A stretch of 63,379 bases of DNA, the filler included, from Craspedostauros australis (Eukaryota): NCBI GenBank assembly GCA_030167865.1. It is 8 parts of 8 records of this genome, joined end to end, with 100 filler letters (N's around TTAATTAATTAA, not from the genome) between each part and the next. Parts side by side here need not be neighbours in the genome. Positions count along the whole stretch, not along the records: positions 1 to 15,293 come from JALAGF010001338.1; 7 more parts are not named here. One strand, given 5' to 3'. The notes under the pieces are model-generated. The model ran no database searches and was not told the origin of the DNA. It saw only the letters and a list, made by a program, of their open reading frames with translations. Below are positions 9,917-57,815 of the stretch, piece after piece; within the stretch, counting starts at the first letter, position 1; the number at the start of each line of letters is the position of its first letter. The translations under genes were made by a program, and so were the position numbers.

Positions 9917-11355
9917 TGCGGATGTCAGTGCCATTCTTGCTTCTTCTGCTTCTTTTTGTCTTATCAATTGTGTATGGTATAGTGTGGTACTCTGTTGCTG
10001 CTAATGCTACTACTGCTACTACTGCTGCTACTAAAGTCGTTAGAAAGAGAGGTCTTGTGTGTGCGTGTTGGTCTCTTCCTTGTTGCTGTTCAGATCAGTC
10101 GATGCTTCCTTGCCTTGTATTGGTGGCTGGTGGTTGATTCGGATGTCTCTTCTGCTTGTTCCTGAGTTTATCGTTGAATTTATGCGTGTCGGTACATGAA
10201 GATGCGCTGCGGAGGAGGGAACTCCTTCGTTTGGTCTTGCGAAGTTGTTCGTGTTGGTGTCGCTGTCCTCGCTGCGCTCCTGATTCGTTTTTGTTCTTGC
10301 CCACAGCGCAGGCATCATTGACACGTCGAAGAATTCTCTCGTAGCCGCCCGTACTCAACCTACCTGCGACTCAGTGTCACCATCTTTCTCTTCACTTCGA
10401 AACCTGCGAACGAATTCTCGTTGACGCAGTGCATGTCTTCTGCGACGTCTGATACGACATGAAAGAGCCTTCTTTGTGGATGCATCTATCTAGCTTCGTC
10501 CATTTAGTATGGATTGAATTTCAGTGGAAGTTGATGTGGTGCGCTGAATGCAGTGCAAGTGTGGGCACAACTGTGGCGAGAGCATCACGCAATTCAAGTG
10601 GGAGCTCTCTGGAGATGAAGAGTCAGTGCCGGCTATTGTTTCTCCAGTGTTACAGTGGCAATGCTATGGTTATTGTTATTGCTATGACTCTATGCCAATG
10701 GTGTGTTGATGGTGGAGATGTGACAGCATGCGATGCGATGGAGCACGGCGCGTTCTTCAACCACGAATCAGTCAATGCGATCGTCCCTCCTTCGGCAGCA
10801 CTTTCCACATTCCAAGTGAAAGTGCATGGGAAGGAGGGATCTGTTCAGAACATCCAGCGTCATCGATCGTCCCAGGCATCGTACTTTCAATGTAGATTAT
10901 GGGTCGACCGTCGACTTCTGGTTGAAACATGTTCGTCATTCCGCATCATCATCTTCGTATGTGTGATTTCGATGCCATGCCATACCGTGGCATGCTATGC
11001 TATGCAGTATTTTCGGCTCCACCATCACGCCCATCGTAGCAAGCCGCACTGCCGTCCTGAATCATCCATGCTCATCAGCTATTACATTTGCCCTCTTCGC
11101 GAGCATGGAGATCCGTCCGTGTTGTGACTGCATCCGGGCATGTTCCCAGCATGGATGCAGTCGATTCGTTCATGTGTACGTCTCTGCGTTTCGTTTTGGT
11201 GTGGTGCAGGCGCCTTGCCTTTGTGCGCGCTGCAGTTTCGTGCAGGACGGAAACGGGGATCCTGTGCATTCCGACGGATACGTTCACGCACTCCATGTGG
11301 ACGCCACAGTCCAATCTGAGATGGCAAACACAACACCGGAGAGTTGCGTTTTGAA

Positions 11356-11417
11356 TTGATGAAAGTATGTCAAGTGCACCGCAATATGCGCGCATGCACC
11401 GTCATTCACTTTCTCAA
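11356..11417 (-). promoter_or_regulatory. Candidate SECIS element B (canonical AUGA/UGA core, atypical apical loop)
   Basis: Minus strand reads GAAAGUG-A-AUGAC-GGUGCAU(G)CGCG-CAUAU-UGCGGUGCACU-UGAC-A-UACUUUC: helix I, GA/GA kink-turn core and an ~11-bp helix II, downstream of a Sec gene. Confidence 0.65.
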
Positions 11418-11603
11418 AGACCATCGTGCTCAGATCTTGCTGTTGCGTCCTCTCATGGAGTTGAATTTTGTTGTTTTCTGTGAAGCGTAATCGTTTCGGA
11501 GGTGCACATCGTGGACTCGGGAGGAATGAAAGCCACTATCGGCCTAATCGTCGTCAGAACGAGATTCGCTTCGCCGAATCCACTGTGGATCAATCCGCTT
11601 CCT

Positions 11604-11675
11604 ACTTGCATCACCCACCCGTGTCGCTCGTTGCGATCTTCTGATCGAGTTTGGCAACGAGGCGTCGCGGCAAGT
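11604..11675 (-). promoter_or_regulatory. Candidate type-II SECIS-like hairpin A (GCGA core, AAA bulge)
   Basis: ACUUGC-CG-CGAC-GCCUCGUUGCC-AAA-CUC-GAUC(AGAA)GAUC-GCAACGAG-CGAC...GCAAGU. Core-to-AAA spacing is 11 nt as in canonical SECIS, but C replaces U in the core. Confidence 0.45.
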
Positions 11676-11704
11676 TCGCCATGTGGACATGAGCTTCCGT
11701 GGAT

Positions 11705-11753
11705 GCCCTTCCAAGGGGCACATCCTTCTTCGAGGATGCGCTGGAGGAAGGGC
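11705..11753 (-). promoter_or_regulatory. Stem-loop starting at +8 after UGA 11761-11763 (candidate readthrough/Sec-redefinition element)
   Basis: GCCCUUCC/GGAAGGGC (8 bp), an internal loop, then GCGCAUCCU/AGGAUGUGC (9 bp) closed by a CGAAGA loop. Confidence 0.45.
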
Positions 11754-11760
11754 GCGGATG

Positions 11761-12589
11761 TCACCCACCGCCGCCACCGAAGCGCATTTTGCGCCGGCCA
11801 GAGAATGGTACGCAGCAAATGAAGAGCGCGATGGCAGAGAAGACAACACCGACGTACATCTTCAGGATGAATTGGGCGTAGGACCCATTCGTGGTGGTCT
11901 TCAACATCTTCTTTTGTGCCAGCAGCTGCTTCTGTTCGGAAATCTGCGTCGCTGGTTTCTTCTTGAGCCCCTTGGTATCGAAGAGGCCGTGCAAGTCGTC
12001 GCGTCGGACGTACGAGCCGAGATCGACCTCCTCGTGTTTGTTACCATCATGAGAGATGGTCATGATGGCCCTGCGACCTGCAAAGCCCCGCGAAACAACA
12101 ATATATTTCACCAACATGGACAAGCACAACGTGAGAACGCCAACGAAAGCAATGTGGCGAGATGAATGGAAAGAGCCTAATCATCGTTTGTGTGTATGCG
12201 ATCACAGGGAACCAGAGGCAGGCAAGAAGGCGATGGTGGTAGAACCAATGGATCAACGGATTAATCAATCAATAAATCAATCAGACCAAATCTCAGGCCT
12301 GAACCAACGCACCTGGAATGTATTGCACCGTCACCCCCTCATATTCTTCGGCCTCTCCGCCTTTCAAGAATTGCTTGAGCTCAGGGTTTTTGTTCAGGGT
12401 TCACCCACCGCAGCTGACGATGTGGGCGGTCACCTGGGGAGATTCGTTCGCCGCAACGGCGATTGAAGGGAACCCTGAGTTCCATGACGCCGTGTTCACG
12501 CTGAGCATTGCGAGGATCGCAAGCACCGTCCGGAGACGAACCATCAAGCCGACGATACCTCCTCCGCGAGGCGTCGTTCCTTTCATCAT
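11761..12589 (-). CDS. SELENOM: SelM/SelF(Sep15)-like selenoprotein with signal peptide and C-terminal TM helix; exons 12589-12313 and 12077-11761; Sec at TGA 12401-12403; may extend through further UGAs to TAG 11602-11604
   Basis: Hydrophobic leader, then AHIVSCGG(TGA)TLNKNPELKQFL...VQYIP|GRRAIMTI...EEVDL...LHGLFDTKGLKKK. SelM/Sep15 similarity continues in frame past the TGA, giving the CxxU motif. GT-AG intron at 12312-12078. Confidence 0.88.
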
Positions 12590-17848: not shown

Positions 17849-18030
17849 AAGAAAGTGAGTTCGAGGTGGTACGAAAGAGCCAAGAAACAAGCGAACATCA
17901 CAGTCCGAACAGCCACCCTGAATGGAGACGAACTGGAGGACCGACGGAAACGAGCGCACGCAAGATGGAAGCAGGCTAAAAGAACGCGTGGTCACATCGA
18001 AGCACCTTCCTACAAGCCAGAGCCGACGAA

Positions 18031-21000
18031 GTGGCAAAGGTAGGGAACACCACAGCGGAAGCGGCCCTGCGATCCATCCAAAAACGAGAGGAAGTCATGG
18101 AAACATACAAGGCCATCCGAAGCGTGCCGGGAGACCACGACACCAACAGCAAAGTCACAATGGTCATAGCACGAAATCCAAGCGGCGAAGAGGAAGTCTA
18201 CGACAAGGAACAAACGGTAATATCGCAGTGCATGCGGGCGAACGAGTCCAAATATCGACAGGCGTACATCACCCCGCTCCAAGGACAGTCCTTCATCAGA
18301 GACATCCGGCGACACGGTATCCACTCCACCCGGCAAAGACAGCTCCATAAGCTCGACCAGCACACCAACAGATTCCTCGCGGAGCTATGCAAACAAGGCA
18401 CGGTTCCATGGACAGCCCAAGATCTAAAGATCACGACCATCAGCCATCAGCAACTGTGGTCCAAGGCGCGGGAGAAGACCACATCGGGGCCGTCAGGTCT
18501 CCACTTTGGGCTGTGGAAAGCCAACGCGCAGAGCGACGCGGTAGCGGATGTCGATGCAGCCATGCGGGAGATATCACTACGCACAGGGTACAATCTGAGG
18601 AGGTGGCTGACATGCACCGACGTAACGCTACTCAAAGAGCCGGGCAACTTCCGAGTGTCACGCTTTCGGACCATCAGCCTGGTCGAAGGTGACTTCAACG
18701 CGAACCTCAAATGGATAGGAAAAATCATGATGAAACACGCCGAGGCACACAACATGCTGCCTGAGGAGCAATACGGCAGTCGCAAGCATCGAAGCGCGGC
18801 GGAGGTCAGCCTGAACAACCGACTGACGGACGATATCATTCGAGCAACGGCTGCTACTAGCTGCATATGCTCCAACGACGCCAAGAGCTGTTATGACAGA
18901 ATGGCCCACGTTCCTCTCGAGCTCAGCATGGAGCACATTGGAGTGCCAACGGTGGTCAGTCGCAGTGTGACGGAAGCAGTTCAATCAATGAAACATCACG
19001 TGCTCACAGGCTTTGGCAAGTCGGTGCGCACGTACCCGCACAGAGGGTCCAAACTGCAAGGACTACTACAAGGTCTGGGTATCTCGCCAGCGGGATGGGT
19101 TGCAATGAGCTCGCCGATCATGAAATCCATGTCTTCGCAAGGGTTTGGATTCCACTCGGTGAGTCCCACAGCGGAAGTATCAGCGAAGCTGGTGTGCTTT
19201 TCGTTCGTGGATGATACGGACCTGATTCATTCCGTCAGAGCGGATGTCAGCGACCCAGAGGCATGCATTGAAGAGATTCAACGAGTTGTGGATTCATGGG
19301 AAGGAATGCTACGAGCTACTGGAGGTGCCCTCGAGCCACGCAAAAGCTACTGGTATCTCATGTCTTTTCGATGGGATGGAACCAAGTGGCAGTACAAGAC
19401 CATTGAAGAGCAGCCAGGAAGCATCAGCATCCGAAAACCAGACGAGCAAGACAAAGAAACGCTGCTGCGGCTACACGTGGACCAAGCAAGGAAGGCACTG
19501 GGTGTGATGGTGAGGCATGACGGAGTACAAGATGATAACGAGGCATACTACACCAAGAAAGCAGAGATCTGGGCAGATAAGATGCGGCGAGGACGCCTGC
19601 TACGAACTCACGCATGGATCGCAATGAAGTCCACCATCTGGAAAGCGTTGGAGCATCCGCTCACGAGCTCTACCTTCACAAAGGAGGCCACCGAACGCAT
19701 CATGCGGCCCGTACTACAAACGGCACTACCGGCGGCTGGGGTGCAGCGCAACATATCACGGCAACTGGTCTTCGGTCCAAGTGCGCGCCTGGGCTTCGAG
19801 GTCCACCATCTGTTCTACACCCAGATCGCAAAGCATCTCGAGGTGCTGGCGAAGCACTGGCAGAGAGACACGCTGATGGGCAAGTTGCTGCAGACATCAG
19901 TGGAGCTGCTGACACTGCAGGTTGGTGTTCCAGACGTTTTCCAACGGGACCCCGGCCAATGGGGTCACCTGGCGGACATCTCGTGGATCAAGACATTGTG
20001 GCAAGAGACCAGCGAGGTGGGTATCACAGTGCAGTGGGAGACCGGGATACTGCACGCCCCTCGACAACAGGATGCGCCAATCATGGAGCGCGTCCGAGCC
20101 CTCGGCCTCGGCCAGTCACAAGAGAAAGTCATCAACACATGCCGAATTGCAAAACAGGTATTCTGGCTCTCGGACATTGTATCTGCCGACGGCACCAAGC
20201 TTCTGAACACAGCGGACAAACAAGGCAAAGATCCACTGAGATCGTCTTGCCTCCGATGGCCACCAGTGGGAGAGATAGGACCGGCAGGATGGAGACAATG
20301 GAGCCTGGCCATCCGGCAGGTAGGCCAAGTCTCGCGGTCGACAACAGTACGACTCGAACGACCACTCGGGCAATGGCATAGATTCAGCTCCCAGCAGCCC
20401 CAAGTGTTCTGGGACCCGGACAGCGATCGCATTCAAGACTTGACGCACGCAGAAAAGCATTACAAAAGAATCCCGCGCAGACGGCGAGGACGAGCACACG
20501 AGCCTGCCGACGGCGCCATACCGCGGCCAAGGCACATCGTCGATGGATATCGGGAGGGCACGCGCATACATATCGAAAGCACCAACGAAGGGCAACCAGA
20601 ACCAGTATGGAACACGGCCACAGTGGAACAGGCGTTGAGAGCTATGGCTCCGGAGATGGCGTGGGCAGTGAGAGAGCACACACTGGAAGGCCAATGGGCG
20701 ACGATAGCTCAGGCTGTGCGACACGGACGGGCGAAGGCGTGCAGCGATGGTTCGGTAGCCCATGGTAAAGGAGCGTCTGGTGCAATGATTCTGGCCTCGC
20801 ACGGAGACGCCTCGGCTCGGCTGCTGATTGCCAACCTTGCTCCAGCTACAGATGGAGTCATGCAGTCTCATCAAGCGGAACTTGCCGGCATCTACGGAGT
20901 CTTGGCGGTGCTGACAGCAGTCTGCAACGTCCACTCAGTCCAGCAAGGATGCATGGAGATAGGATGCGACAACACGGGAGCTCTCAAGGCGCTCGATCTG

Positions 21001-22335
21001 GAATGGCATCTCTCCCCAACCTCTACCGACGCCGACCTACAAAGAGCAGTTCGAAACCTTAGCAGAGATCTCCCCATCGAAGTCCGCGGGAAACACGTCA
21101 AGGGACATCAAGACGATGGTACGGTGTGGGTGGACTTAAGCGAGTGGGCGCGCATGAATGTCGTCGCCGATAAGCTCGCCGGAGCAGCCAGAGTCTCCAT
21201 CCCAGATGGCGAAATACACGAAGGGCACATCGCAGGCGAGAGGGTGCCATTCGTCACGGATCGAAAGATAACACGTATCGGATACTCTGCAGTCGCCCAG
21301 GGCCAAACTCTCCAAGGCGCTGCTGCAGTGCTGAAGTCCAGGAAAGTGATTGCACAAGAGCAGCCAGCGGCATGGCAAGAAATTGGTGACGCGCTGACAG
21401 AGCTCGACCATAACCGGCACCTGTTAACCATCAAGCTTCTGACCGGGGAGGCTCCAGTTGGCAAACGCATGAAACAGTGGGGACTGCGCGACTCAGATCA
21501 GTGCCCCAGCTGTGGGCAAAGGGAGGACGCGGAACACTTCTGGATGTGCACAGGAGCCGACAGGACGGCAGTGGCACAGCGACAACTGATCGACATACGA
21601 CGGTGGATGAAGTCGTACCCGACGAAACCCGACATAGCAACAGGGGTAACCTCCATTTTGCGTAGCCAGTTGGAAGGCACTGTGCATCTACATTCGACCA
21701 GCCCGGGAAGCCAGATGCGAGAGGCGGCAAGTCAGCAGGCCGCAATTGGCACCAACGCTCTTCGCAAAGGCCTCCTCGCAAAGCACTGGCAACCCATGCA
21801 AGGTGAGTATCTTCAACAGCGGAAATCGAGAAAGTCAGCCGCAAAGTGGTCCAAGCAGCTAATCCGGAGAATATGGAAAATCGCCTGGGAACAGTGGGCG
21901 GCGCGAAATACGGCCATGTTTGAAGGTCAGGACTCGGCCGAAGCTGAAATGGTTCAAGCCCTCCGAAACAGGGCGAACGCACTTCATCTTCGCCTCGAGC
22001 AAGACAGTACCGACCACCACCGCATCACCCAAACGAAGCCCGCCGACGACGCCGCTGTAGGACAGGTCGCGGTATGGGTCGAGCAAGCAGCACGCATACT
22101 ACATGAGCCGGCCGCCTCCGGCGCCCTGCTCAACTGGCTAATGTGTAGACGGCAAGCTCACCCAGCCCCGACTGAGTCCGCGATGCACGCGTTTCGGGAC
22201 AACGGGCCACCATTACATGAGACACATACATATACAAAACGCAGATTCCGTGCTCCCTTCGTGCCGCGCACGAAGTTGAAAGAAGGCGGAGAAAAGCGCC
22301 ACCGGCGCAGCCTCATAAGAGGGTCTAATCTCTGA
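18031..22335 (+). CDS. Uninterrupted RT + RNase H + zinc-knuckle part of ORF2 (1434 aa)
   Basis: RT and RNase H catalytic motifs are intact as listed for the element. Confidence 0.92.
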   Translation: MAKVGNTTAEAALRSIQKREEVMETYKAIRSVPGDHDTNSKVTMVIARNPSGEEEVYDKEQTVISQCMRANESKYRQAYITPLQGQSFIRDIRRHGIHSTRQRQLHKLDQHTNRFLAELCKQGTVPWTAQDLKITTISHQQLWSKAREKTTSGPSGLHFGLWKANAQSDAVADVDAAMREISLRTGYNLRRWLTCTDVTLLKEPGNFRVSRFRTISLVEGDFNANLKWIGKIMMKHAEAHNMLPEEQYGSRKHRSAAEVSLNNRLTDDIIRATAATSCICSNDAKSCYDRMAHVPLELSMEHIGVPTVVSRSVTEAVQSMKHHVLTGFGKSVRTYPHRGSKLQGLLQGLGISPAGWVAMSSPIMKSMSSQGFGFHSVSPTAEVSAKLVCFSFVDDTDLIHSVRADVSDPEACIEEIQRVVDSWEGMLRATGGALEPRKSYWYLMSFRWDGTKWQYKTIEEQPGSISIRKPDEQDKETLLRLHVDQARKALGVMVRHDGVQDDNEAYYTKKAEIWADKMRRGRLLRTHAWIAMKSTIWKALEHPLTSSTFTKEATERIMRPVLQTALPAAGVQRNISRQLVFGPSARLGFEVHHLFYTQIAKHLEVLAKHWQRDTLMGKLLQTSVELLTLQVGVPDVFQRDPGQWGHLADISWIKTLWQETSEVGITVQWETGILHAPRQQDAPIMERVRALGLGQSQEKVINTCRIAKQVFWLSDIVSADGTKLLNTADKQGKDPLRSSCLRWPPVGEIGPAGWRQWSLAIRQVGQVSRSTTVRLERPLGQWHRFSSQQPQVFWDPDSDRIQDLTHAEKHYKRIPRRRRGRAHEPADGAIPRPRHIVDGYREGTRIHIESTNEGQPEPVWNTATVEQALRAMAPEMAWAVREHTLEGQWATIAQAVRHGRAKACSDGSVAHGKGASGAMILASHGDASARLLIANLAPATDGVMQSHQAELAGIYGVLAVLTAVCNVHSVQQGCMEIGCDNTGALKALDLEWHLSPTSTDADLQRAVRNLSRDLPIEVRGKHVKGHQDDGTVWVDLSEWARMNVVADKLAGAARVSIPDGEIHEGHIAGERVPFVTDRKITRIGYSAVAQGQTLQGAAAVLKSRKVIAQEQPAAWQEIGDALTELDHNRHLLTIKLLTGEAPVGKRMKQWGLRDSDQCPSCGQREDAEHFWMCTGADRTAVAQRQLIDIRRWMKSYPTKPDIATGVTSILRSQLEGTVHLHSTSPGSQMREAASQQAAIGTNALRKGLLAKHWQPMQGEYLQQRKSRKSAAKWSKQLIRRIWKIAWEQWAARNTAMFEGQDSAEAEMVQALRNRANALHLRLEQDSTDHHRITQTKPADDAAVGQVAVWVEQAARILHEPAASGALLNWLMCRRQAHPAPTESAMHAFRDNGPPLHETHTYTKRRFRAPFVPRTKLKEGGEKRHRRSLIRGSNL

Positions 22336-57214: not shown

Positions 57215-57272
57215 CCTGAGCTGGATTCCATGAGTCTCTCTCCGGAGAGAGACTCATGGAATCCAGCTCAGG
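57215..57272. repeat. Perfect 58-bp spacerless palindrome
   Basis: CCTGAGCTGGATTCCATGAGTCTCTCTCC|GGAGAGAGACTCATGGAATCCAGCTCAGG. Confidence 0.95.
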
Positions 57273-57815
57273 CGGTGTGTCCCAATAGCTCGTGCTCGGA
57301 CAAAATGAAGGGTGGCACAGCAGTGAAGGAATCGCGGGCTTCAAAGATTCGTCAGGGGAAGTCGCGAACAAACAACGCTGCTCCGCCAAAGCATGCAGGC
57401 ACAAATTTGGCACGATTGGTGCTGGGAGGCGCGGTAATCCATTTGAGTGGGGCATTACAAAGGACCTTTTTCGTCACAAAACGGTGTTCTTCACCTTTTT
57501 TCTAAAAATTTTAAATCGCAATTCCGCATGCTTTCGGACGCGCCAAGTTTTGCGATGCGATCGTCGCTGATGTGCCGACGCTTCGGTGATTGTCTCGCTC
57601 ACAATTTTTTGTGTTTTGCCCACGACATCACGGGGTGCGCTTCTTCCTGCGTCGTTCCTTGTCTCTCCGCCATTGACGTTGGAATGGTCGTCTGCGGCAT
57701 CTGCTGCCTTCGGCCTCTCCGGTCTGTACTAACACTGACACATCACCATTGTTGCTTGGTGCTAAAACAACACACCACCACTCCTCCACAGTACAGTTGT
57801 TGTCGCTGTTGGACT

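Follow-up and report, generated by a model that had tools for sequence, protein, structure and literature searches.

Here we report a gene on the minus strand of a 63,379-base stretch of Craspedostauros australis DNA (GenBank assembly GCA_030167865.1), which consists of eight parts joined end to end and is referred to below as the window; all coordinates run along the whole window. The gene encodes a membrane-anchored SelM-like selenoprotein, and its spliced frame holds three UGA codons. The first of these (UGA1), which lies in an SCGG-U motif, is almost certainly read as selenocysteine (Sec). A strong hairpin located just behind the second one (UGA2) suggests that translation can run into a tail bearing one or two more Sec residues. 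The reading that we favour, at a shade under an even chance, is that of a gene with one well-supported Sec and with a UGA2 that serves as Sec codon or as stop, giving rise to two products. Passage of ribosomes through UGA2 at a meaningful rate is slightly more probable than its opposite, and decoding of all three UGAs, including the third one (UGA3), as Sec is possible and rather doubtful.

The frame opens with an ATG at 12589-12587 (minus strand, as for all features of the gene), and its 5' coding part reads MMKGTTPRGGGIVGLMVRLRTVLAILAMLSVNTASW...HIVSCGG-U-TLNKNPELKQFLKGGEAEEYEGVTVQYIPG. Exon 1 (12313-12589), defined by translation, by its Pfam match and by contig cover, comprises the ATG, a hydrophobic N-terminus and the first half of the Sep15/SelM domain including SCGG-U, in which UGA1 occupies 12401-12403. 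It ends with the donor G|GTGCGT at 12313/12312, from which a 235-nucleotide (nt) GT..AG intron (12078-12312) extends to the acceptor ...TTGCAG| at 12078/12077. From 12077, exon 2 reads RRAIMTISHDG...FICCVPFSGRRKMRFGGGGG-U-HPRPSSS...ATSDTGG-U-CK-stop. Its part up to UGA2 (11764-12077) encodes the remaining half of the SelM domain, then a charged linker, the predicted transmembrane (TM) helix AQFILKMYVGVVFSAIALFICCVPF (about 11877-11803, from the translation of exon 2), the RRKMR patch and a GGGGG stretch. UGA2 itself (11761-11763; RFGGGGG-U), which is followed by a C, would be the stop of a short form or a recoded (Sec) codon. It precedes a possible 49-codon extension, HPRPSSS...ATSDTGG (11614-11760), which is coding only if UGA2 is recoded. 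UGA3 (SDTGG-U) and the codons UGC, AAG and UAG follow at 11602-11613. Translation of the spliced frame therefore bore out the original prediction, which had placed TGA codons at 12403-12401, 11763-11761 and 11613-11611 and the first non-UGA stop, TAG, at 11604-11602.

Transcript evidence was obtained from one public sequencing run (X1), which is RNA by guess only and which contains 44% of the sampled words. A 165-nt contig of this run joins 12450-12311 to 12075-12051 (junction 12075/12311, a cut shifted by +2), skipping 235 nt bounded by CT..AC on the plus strand, that is, GT..AG on the minus strand; the join thus falls precisely over the modelled intron. An 832-nt contig matches 11659-10828 with 0 differences and shows that the RNA extends at least 774 nt past the UAG. 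UGA1, UGA3 and the UAG are all present in these contigs, unaltered, neither spliced out nor edited. The contigs leave 12050-11660 uncovered, a region that includes UGA2, on which they are uninformative either way; their mean word depths are 85.4 and 3.3, values that cannot serve to rank the parts of the gene. The gene is real and is spliced as modelled. The possibility that 10828-11659 is a separate gene was discarded: the open reading frames (ORFs) scored on either strand had values of -0.54 to 0.00, which are not coding-like, and the segment is unrepeated in the window. It was therefore taken as belonging to this gene, whose 3' untranslated region (UTR) would occupy 10828-11601, up to the contig limit, with no coding-like ORF on either strand. 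TGA is the closing stop of 4 of the 10 long ORFs examined in the window, and the organism therefore uses the standard code. A scan for bacterial promoters and terminators was set aside, the gene being eukaryotic. A strong two-part hairpin is present on both strands at 10784-10839 (-31.1 kcal/mol on the minus strand and -32.7 kcal/mol on the plus strand, for the 60-nt stretches starting from 10839 and 10781, respectively). It coincides with the end of the 832-nt contig (10828) and may indicate where the transcript ends or explain why the assembly stopped there.

Exon 1 alone matched the Pfam family PF08806 (Sep15_SelM) with 30.3 bits, the cut-off being 26 (E 4.3e-7; residues 55-93 aligned to positions 1-38 of the 75 of the profile); the profile was compared with the exons and with relatives. 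The CxxU motif, SCGG-TGA at 12403-12401, aligned with SCPG-W in the relative P0009 and with SCSG-W in the relative P0010, in which the W at the U position probably stands for a TGA called as Trp by the gene caller. An exhaustive HMMER search of 1.84 billion representative sequences with exon 2 yielded five proteins, the best being P0003 (E 1.9e-12), which is 41% identical and belongs to a transcriptome set of marine eukaryotes; the sources of P0003/P0008 are an MMETSP transcript and a 1275-nt JGI contig. P0008 and P0009 were added by cluster look-up and P0010, P0011 and P0012 by word-index searches, which returned four proteins with alignment A1 as query, two with P0008 and no match with exon 2. 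With exon 2, a sequence search of the PDB gave nothing below E 0.2; the ESM Atlas gave no usable match for the part up to UGA2, and metagenome scans with P0002 and with P0008 gave no confirmed locus.

Eight of the database relatives (P0003/P0008, P0004, P0005, P0006, P0007/P0009 and P0011) share the layout of exon 2: second half of the SelM domain, linker, hydrophobic helix and basic patch. The five hits of the exon 2 search show this layout, whereas a ninth relative lacks the TM helix. In the alignment, the linker of these membrane-type relatives is the charged sequence KK..QI.EQRR. P0012 (...AEEL) and P0010 (...AMEL) resemble the usual soluble form. P0009 and P0010, both full length, matched positions 2-75 of PF08806 with 37.4 and 46.6 bits, and P0008 matched positions 11-75, across the exon junction, with 23.7 bits, which is under the cut-off. 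An AlphaFold model of P0009, built from a 7-row alignment, had a mean predicted local distance difference test (pLDDT) score of 67, with 72-88 in the domain blocks and a long helix at residues 106-155. Its top match in the PDB was mouse SelM (2a2p; E 1e-4, root-mean-square deviation of 2.1 Å over 82 columns), Sep15 (2a4h) being found at rank 10. The family's thioredoxin-like alpha/beta fold is thus predicted from the model of a relative rather than of the window protein. These data support the SelM-like CGGU selenoprotein and the membrane-spanning character that had been proposed from the sequence.

SelM has been described as a soluble protein with a C-terminal signal for retention in the endoplasmic reticulum (ER) (PMC10650576). 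The protein studied here resembles SelM and Sep15 (SELENOM and SELENOF; PF08806) by its thioredoxin-like domain, its CxxU motif (here CGGU) and its hydrophobic N-terminus. However, instead of a retention tetrapeptide, its C-terminus has a TM helix and a basic patch, and it is therefore a membrane-anchored variant of the Sep15/SelM family; where the described form is soluble, this gene and eight relatives are predicted to continue after the domain with a linker and a TM helix, and then with a basic patch in the cytosol. Within the SelM-like set, only this gene shows two further in-frame UGAs. The hydrophobic signal-peptide-like N-terminus (about 12589-12485) and the positive patch that follows the helix suggest that a signal peptide is cleaved and that the chain runs from lumen through the membrane to cytosol. 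In Thalassiosira pseudonana, Table 2 of PMC2375036 gives two SelM genes, SelK and SelS not being found, and fusions of SELENOM with pVHL and ShKT domains have been reported (PMC7539508). Neither a membrane-anchored nor a multi-Sec SelM was found in the literature searched, itself represented by excerpts, which is not proof that none is in print.

Two observations on the protein should be mentioned. The predicted signal peptide ends ...SVNTA-SW, with an aromatic residue right after the likely cleavage site. This arrangement resembles the plastid-import motif of diatoms, so that the compartment, instead of being the general ER, could be the chloroplast ER. In addition, P0008 is a mosaic with respect to the window protein: it is 100% identical to exon 1 over the 29 residues after the Sec (12397-12311) and 42% identical to exon 2 over 100 residues (12078-11779). 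Such a pattern could result from a paralogue with gene conversion or from very uneven constraint; the window has no second copy of exon 2.

The original prediction had pointed out that the three UGAs have the same GGT GGG TGA context. The corresponding 9-mer, GGTGGGTGA, has three matches in the window, both strands counted, and these are exactly the three UGA sites, all in this gene and all in the spliced frame. Shuffling gave an expectation of 0.70 copies per window, and three or more copies anywhere were found in 5 of 100 shuffles. For two extra copies that lie within ~1 kb and share one strand and one reading frame, we estimate a chance of roughly 1e-5 to 1e-6, a value that is our own arithmetic from the shuffle rate and no tool output. 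UGA1 and UGA2 have 11 bases in common (GCGGTGGGTGA), and the Sec-codon context of the gene, written as a string, is GGUGGGUGA. Based on the Gly codons of seven window genes (GGA 45, GGC 139, GGG 50, GGT 44), GGT-GGG is expected for ~3% of Gly-Gly pairs; three identical choices of this kind therefore indicate a constraint at the nucleotide level, whichever reading is right. Two origins of the repeat were rejected. In the case of a tandem duplication, the 150 nt ending at UGA2 and those ending at UGA3 share the 9-mer only (p 0.14 with it and 0.19 without it), and the segments are unrelated at the protein level (p 0.63). In the case of a foldback transposon, the segment ends are not inverted repeats.

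Comparison of folding energies with those of shuffled sequences revealed a two-part hairpin at 11705-11753, which begins 7 nt after UGA2. It is made of an 8-bp stem (GCCCUUCC/GGAAGGGC), internal loops, and a 9-bp stem (GCGCAUCCU/AGGAUGUGC) closed by the loop CGAAGA. The 60 nt that follow UGA2 fold with -30.9 kcal/mol (z -5.2, 200 shuffles), a second folding tool gave z -3.3 and 43% of the ensemble, and the hairpin is retained in the centroid of a 186-nt fold. Equal or better folding is found in 30 of the 24,739 60-nt stretches of the window, which places it in the top 0.12%. No comparable structure follows UGA1, UGA3 or the UAG (z +0.5 to +1.0), and, as four sites and two lengths were examined, the corrected chance for the hairpin is about 0.01. 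A second hairpin, before UGA3 (about 11672-11617), was discarded as not significant (z -1.5). UGA2 therefore has a stem-loop within about 10 nt on its 3' side, as required of redefinition and readthrough elements. The element of SELENON has a 6-nt spacer. Stem-loops and a C located 3' of a UGA are known to stimulate its readthrough, stem-loops by up to 10-fold (PMC3159437), and the stem-loops behind UGA-Sec codons called Sec redefinition elements (SREs) inhibit termination and stimulate Sec insertion (PMC8704476). The structure described here resembles the SREs of SELENON and SELENOT and the UGA-C readthrough signals in being a stable stem-loop a few nt after a UGA. However, in the known SREs it is the main Sec codon that precedes the structure, whereas the hairpin predicted here comes after UGA2 and not after UGA1.

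As UGA1 needs a Sec insertion sequence (SECIS), we chose as candidate a kink-turn (K-turn) hairpin of the 3' UTR (11357-11417). It has a helix I of 10-11 bp, an AAUGAC/UUGAC core that provides the AUGA/GA non-Watson-Crick pairs, a helix II of 7+4 bp that contains a single bulge, and the loop CAUAU. That this hairpin is a SECIS, of a non-canonical type, is somewhat probable. Decoding of additional UGAs depends on the SECIS, and some SECIS elements permit Sec at any upstream UGA (PMC3737529). The only match that Rfam gave near the gene falls on the same hairpin, a weak one of the C/D-box small nucleolar RNA type at 11367-11409 (minus strand; 19.2 bits, E 1.7), and the hairpin could alternatively be a small K-turn RNA.

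In the model that we favour, the product would be a type I membrane anchor whose thioredoxin-like domain, with SCGG-U, would be brought into the lumen of the ER (or of an ER-derived compartment) by the signal-peptide-like N-terminus; the charged linker and one TM helix would come next, and the RRKMR patch would be cytosolic. UGA1 would be read as Sec with the aid of a 3'-UTR element, the best candidate being the hairpin at 11417-11357. UGA2 would be dual-purpose: termination would yield a short form similar to the relatives, and a fraction of the ribosomes would insert Sec, helped by the GCGGUGGGUGA context also found at UGA1, by the weak UGA-C and by the stable hairpin. The ribosomes that read through would go 49 codons further to UGA3, again in the GGU GGG UGA context, and the long form would end ...SDTGG, or ...GG-U-C-K if UGA3 is read as well. 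Its flexible tail would thus bear one or two Sec residues on the cytosolic side, which is where SelK and SelS have theirs. We infer from these features the recoding at UGA2 and UGA3, its dependence on selenium and a redox role of the tail. A complete protein with a luminal CGGU, a cytosolic juxtamembrane GGGGG-U and a C-terminal GG-U-C-K, made only when selenium and the hairpin allow it, is conceivable, and we advance it tentatively; equally tentative is the idea that the cell would alternate between two products, a plain membrane-anchored SelM and one to which a SelK/SelS-like tail is fused. A trans-membrane redox relay, one of the two functions imagined originally, is speculation. The other one, the production of isoforms by regulated UGA recoding, is more credible than a constitutive three-Sec protein because a strong hairpin lies 7 nt after UGA2-C.

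The composition of the tail gives limited help. Its codon score is +0.05 in frame versus -0.26 and -0.14 in the other frames, and its GC content by codon position is 0.61/0.55/0.67, the third-position value of 0.67 being closer to that of coding sequence (0.70) than to that of UTR (0.52). The tail ends GG-U-C-K-stop, which places a Cys beside the last Sec candidate.

A number of observations weigh against recoding at UGA2 and against the SECIS candidate. The codon score of the tail lies at the 22nd percentile of coding stretches and is equalled by 6% of off-frame stretches, and some UTR stretches, at 0.04 to 0.13, are as high. The other two minus-strand frames are also free of stops across 11760-11602, so that the openness of the tail alone carries little weight. 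The GC profile declines gradually, with no sharp step at 11760 or 11602. None of the five matches found among the 1.84 billion representatives aligns past query residue 108, and no Pfam family, SelK and SelS included, matched exon 2 (E up to 10) or the 49-residue tail (E up to 1); of the three-Sec claim of the original prediction, UGA1 as Sec stands, whereas UGA2 and UGA3 as Sec found no support from relatives or families. The lack of a tail homologue is nevertheless weaker than it appears, as a TGA ends the frame for most gene callers. In P0009 a TGA was apparently called as W, yet its tail of 35 residues is unrelated and has no further W, and P0011, P0008, P0006 and P0005 stop within 6-25 residues of the TM helix. 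With respect to the SECIS candidate, the primary pattern of SECISearch (NUGA, 10-13 nt, AA or CC, 15-39 nt, GA; PMC2375036) asks for AA or CC at a place where the K-turn hairpin has GCGC. Structures equal to it occurred in 48 of 1000 shuffles, which is marginal, and the score of a looser SECIS scan was equalled by 13% of the shuffles. No canonical SECIS was found in 11780-10600, where the two pattern matches are poor, with Y-shaped or weak folds, and Rfam gave no SECIS around the gene (E up to 10) or in the whole window (gathering score). Finally, the insertion of a 141-nt segment with a 9-bp target duplication would produce the UGA2/UGA3 repeat and could bring in its own hairpin.

We therefore weighed the simpler explanation of a single-Sec protein in which UGA2 is an ordinary stop (...RRKMRFGGGGG) and the remainder is 3' UTR, the repeats having arisen by chance or through a 141-nt insertion; this is a distinct possibility, to which we give well under an even chance, and the same holds for its corollary that the hairpin, whether it belongs to the UTR or came with the insertion, has no role in decoding. 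The short form fits the family: past the basic patch the relatives do not extend far, and the nearest one stops at the same aligned place, its called frame ending ...RRRKRGFMMSG, which aligns at ...RRKMRFGGGGG-UGA2 give or take one residue. This end, as far as the alignment goes, would fit a conserved TGA and a conserved ordinary stop equally. TGA is an ordinary stop in this organism, the tail is without homologue or family match, and codon use, with three frames open, is equivocal. Furthermore, 9-bp direct repeats exactly 150 nt apart are the expected trace of an insertion with target duplication. However, chance is a poor explanation for a 9-mer that is present three times in frame when 0.7 copies per window are expected, and the insertion leaves the 11-nt match between UGA1 and UGA2 unexplained. 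Moreover, terminal inverted repeats are missing from the 141-nt segment, which occurs once in the window and does not resemble the 150 nt before it; a hairpin of the top 0.12% placed 7 nt past the stop would be a further coincidence, and a UGA stop located upstream of a working SECIS is liable to decoding (PMC3737529).

Two other ways of passing UGA2 were considered. Readthrough of the alphavirus type by a near-cognate tRNA (Trp, Arg or Cys) would yield the extended isoform with no extra selenium. It agrees with a UGA followed by C near a strong stem-loop, a type of structure reported to raise readthrough up to 10-fold (PMC3159437). However, recruitment of the Sec machinery to this mRNA is needed in any case for UGA1, UGA1 and UGA2 have the same context across 11 nt, and UGA3 has the 9-mer without a hairpin, an arrangement that a common Sec context explains better than does a leak driven by structure; we regard this mechanism as improbable. 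Still less probable, indeed hardly to be expected, is a bypass of UGA2, by use of G|GUGACA as splice donor or by a +1 slip on GGG-UGA, either of which would put the C-terminus in another frame. GGUGG|GUGA does look like a donor, the confirmed donor of the gene being G|GUGCGU, and the +1 frame is open for 72 codons past UGA2. Nevertheless, that frame scores -0.26, like off-frame sequence. In addition, the identical sequences at UGA1 and UGA3 are unspliced, the X1 contigs passing directly through both, which settles for these two sites the concern, raised at the outset, that GG|GTGA might be used as donor; and the contig that starts from 11659, upstream of the only plausible acceptor (cag, 11643-11641), follows the genome.

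Recoding at UGA2, which remains the reading that we prefer, would place this protein near two groups of known selenoproteins. If UGA2 and UGA3 are read, it would resemble SelK and SelS in having, past a TM helix, a flexible cytosolic tail with a Sec placed after Gly-Gly. SelK and SelS end in a GG-U motif; here the last Sec, if read, would lie three residues from the end and beside a Cys. SelK and SelS are without a luminal redox domain and have no sequence similarity to this protein, so that the likeness is one of layout, not membership. SELENOS forms a Cys174-Sec188 selenylsulfide (PMC10650576). The second group is that of the multi-Sec proteins of algae and protists, such as PDI_e with GUGUU and the two-Sec SELENOW (UxxU) and SELENOJ (PMC7539508), or MSP with two Sec (PMC2375036). 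These have in common with the gene described here, if its further UGAs are read, that more than one UGA is decoded per mRNA of a unicellular eukaryote. However, in PDI_e and SELENOW the Sec residues are close together in one motif, whereas here a membrane would separate them.

The long form, if made, would be the first member of the SelM family to have Sec residues on both sides of a membrane. The gene would then provide a compact natural mRNA in which a constitutive Sec codon stands beside a structure-assisted, probably selenium-dependent Sec-or-stop codon, and, with the GCGGUGGGUGA context and the hairpin, a defined cis element for the little-studied Sec machinery of marine algae. The conservative reading is also of use: standard gene callers cut the gene at UGA1, and its database relatives are truncated or have a W at this place, in agreement with the expectation that such a gene would be split or truncated.

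Other features of the window can be summarized briefly. A neighbouring gene carries DUF6824, a domain associated with diatoms. A 1451-codon open frame at 17980-22332 (plus strand) with an RVT_1 domain (E 5.5e-9) is probably a retroelement. In the region 15294-62278, 17 runs of N add up to 801 bases, and most of them form pairs of 44 N located 12 bases apart, one pair being in the upstream neighbour gene; we read these runs as masked or gap-filled stretches. Finally, a near-perfect palindrome at 57216-57274, with arms of about 26-27 bp, gives the most stable 60-nt fold of the window (-51 to -53 kcal/mol).

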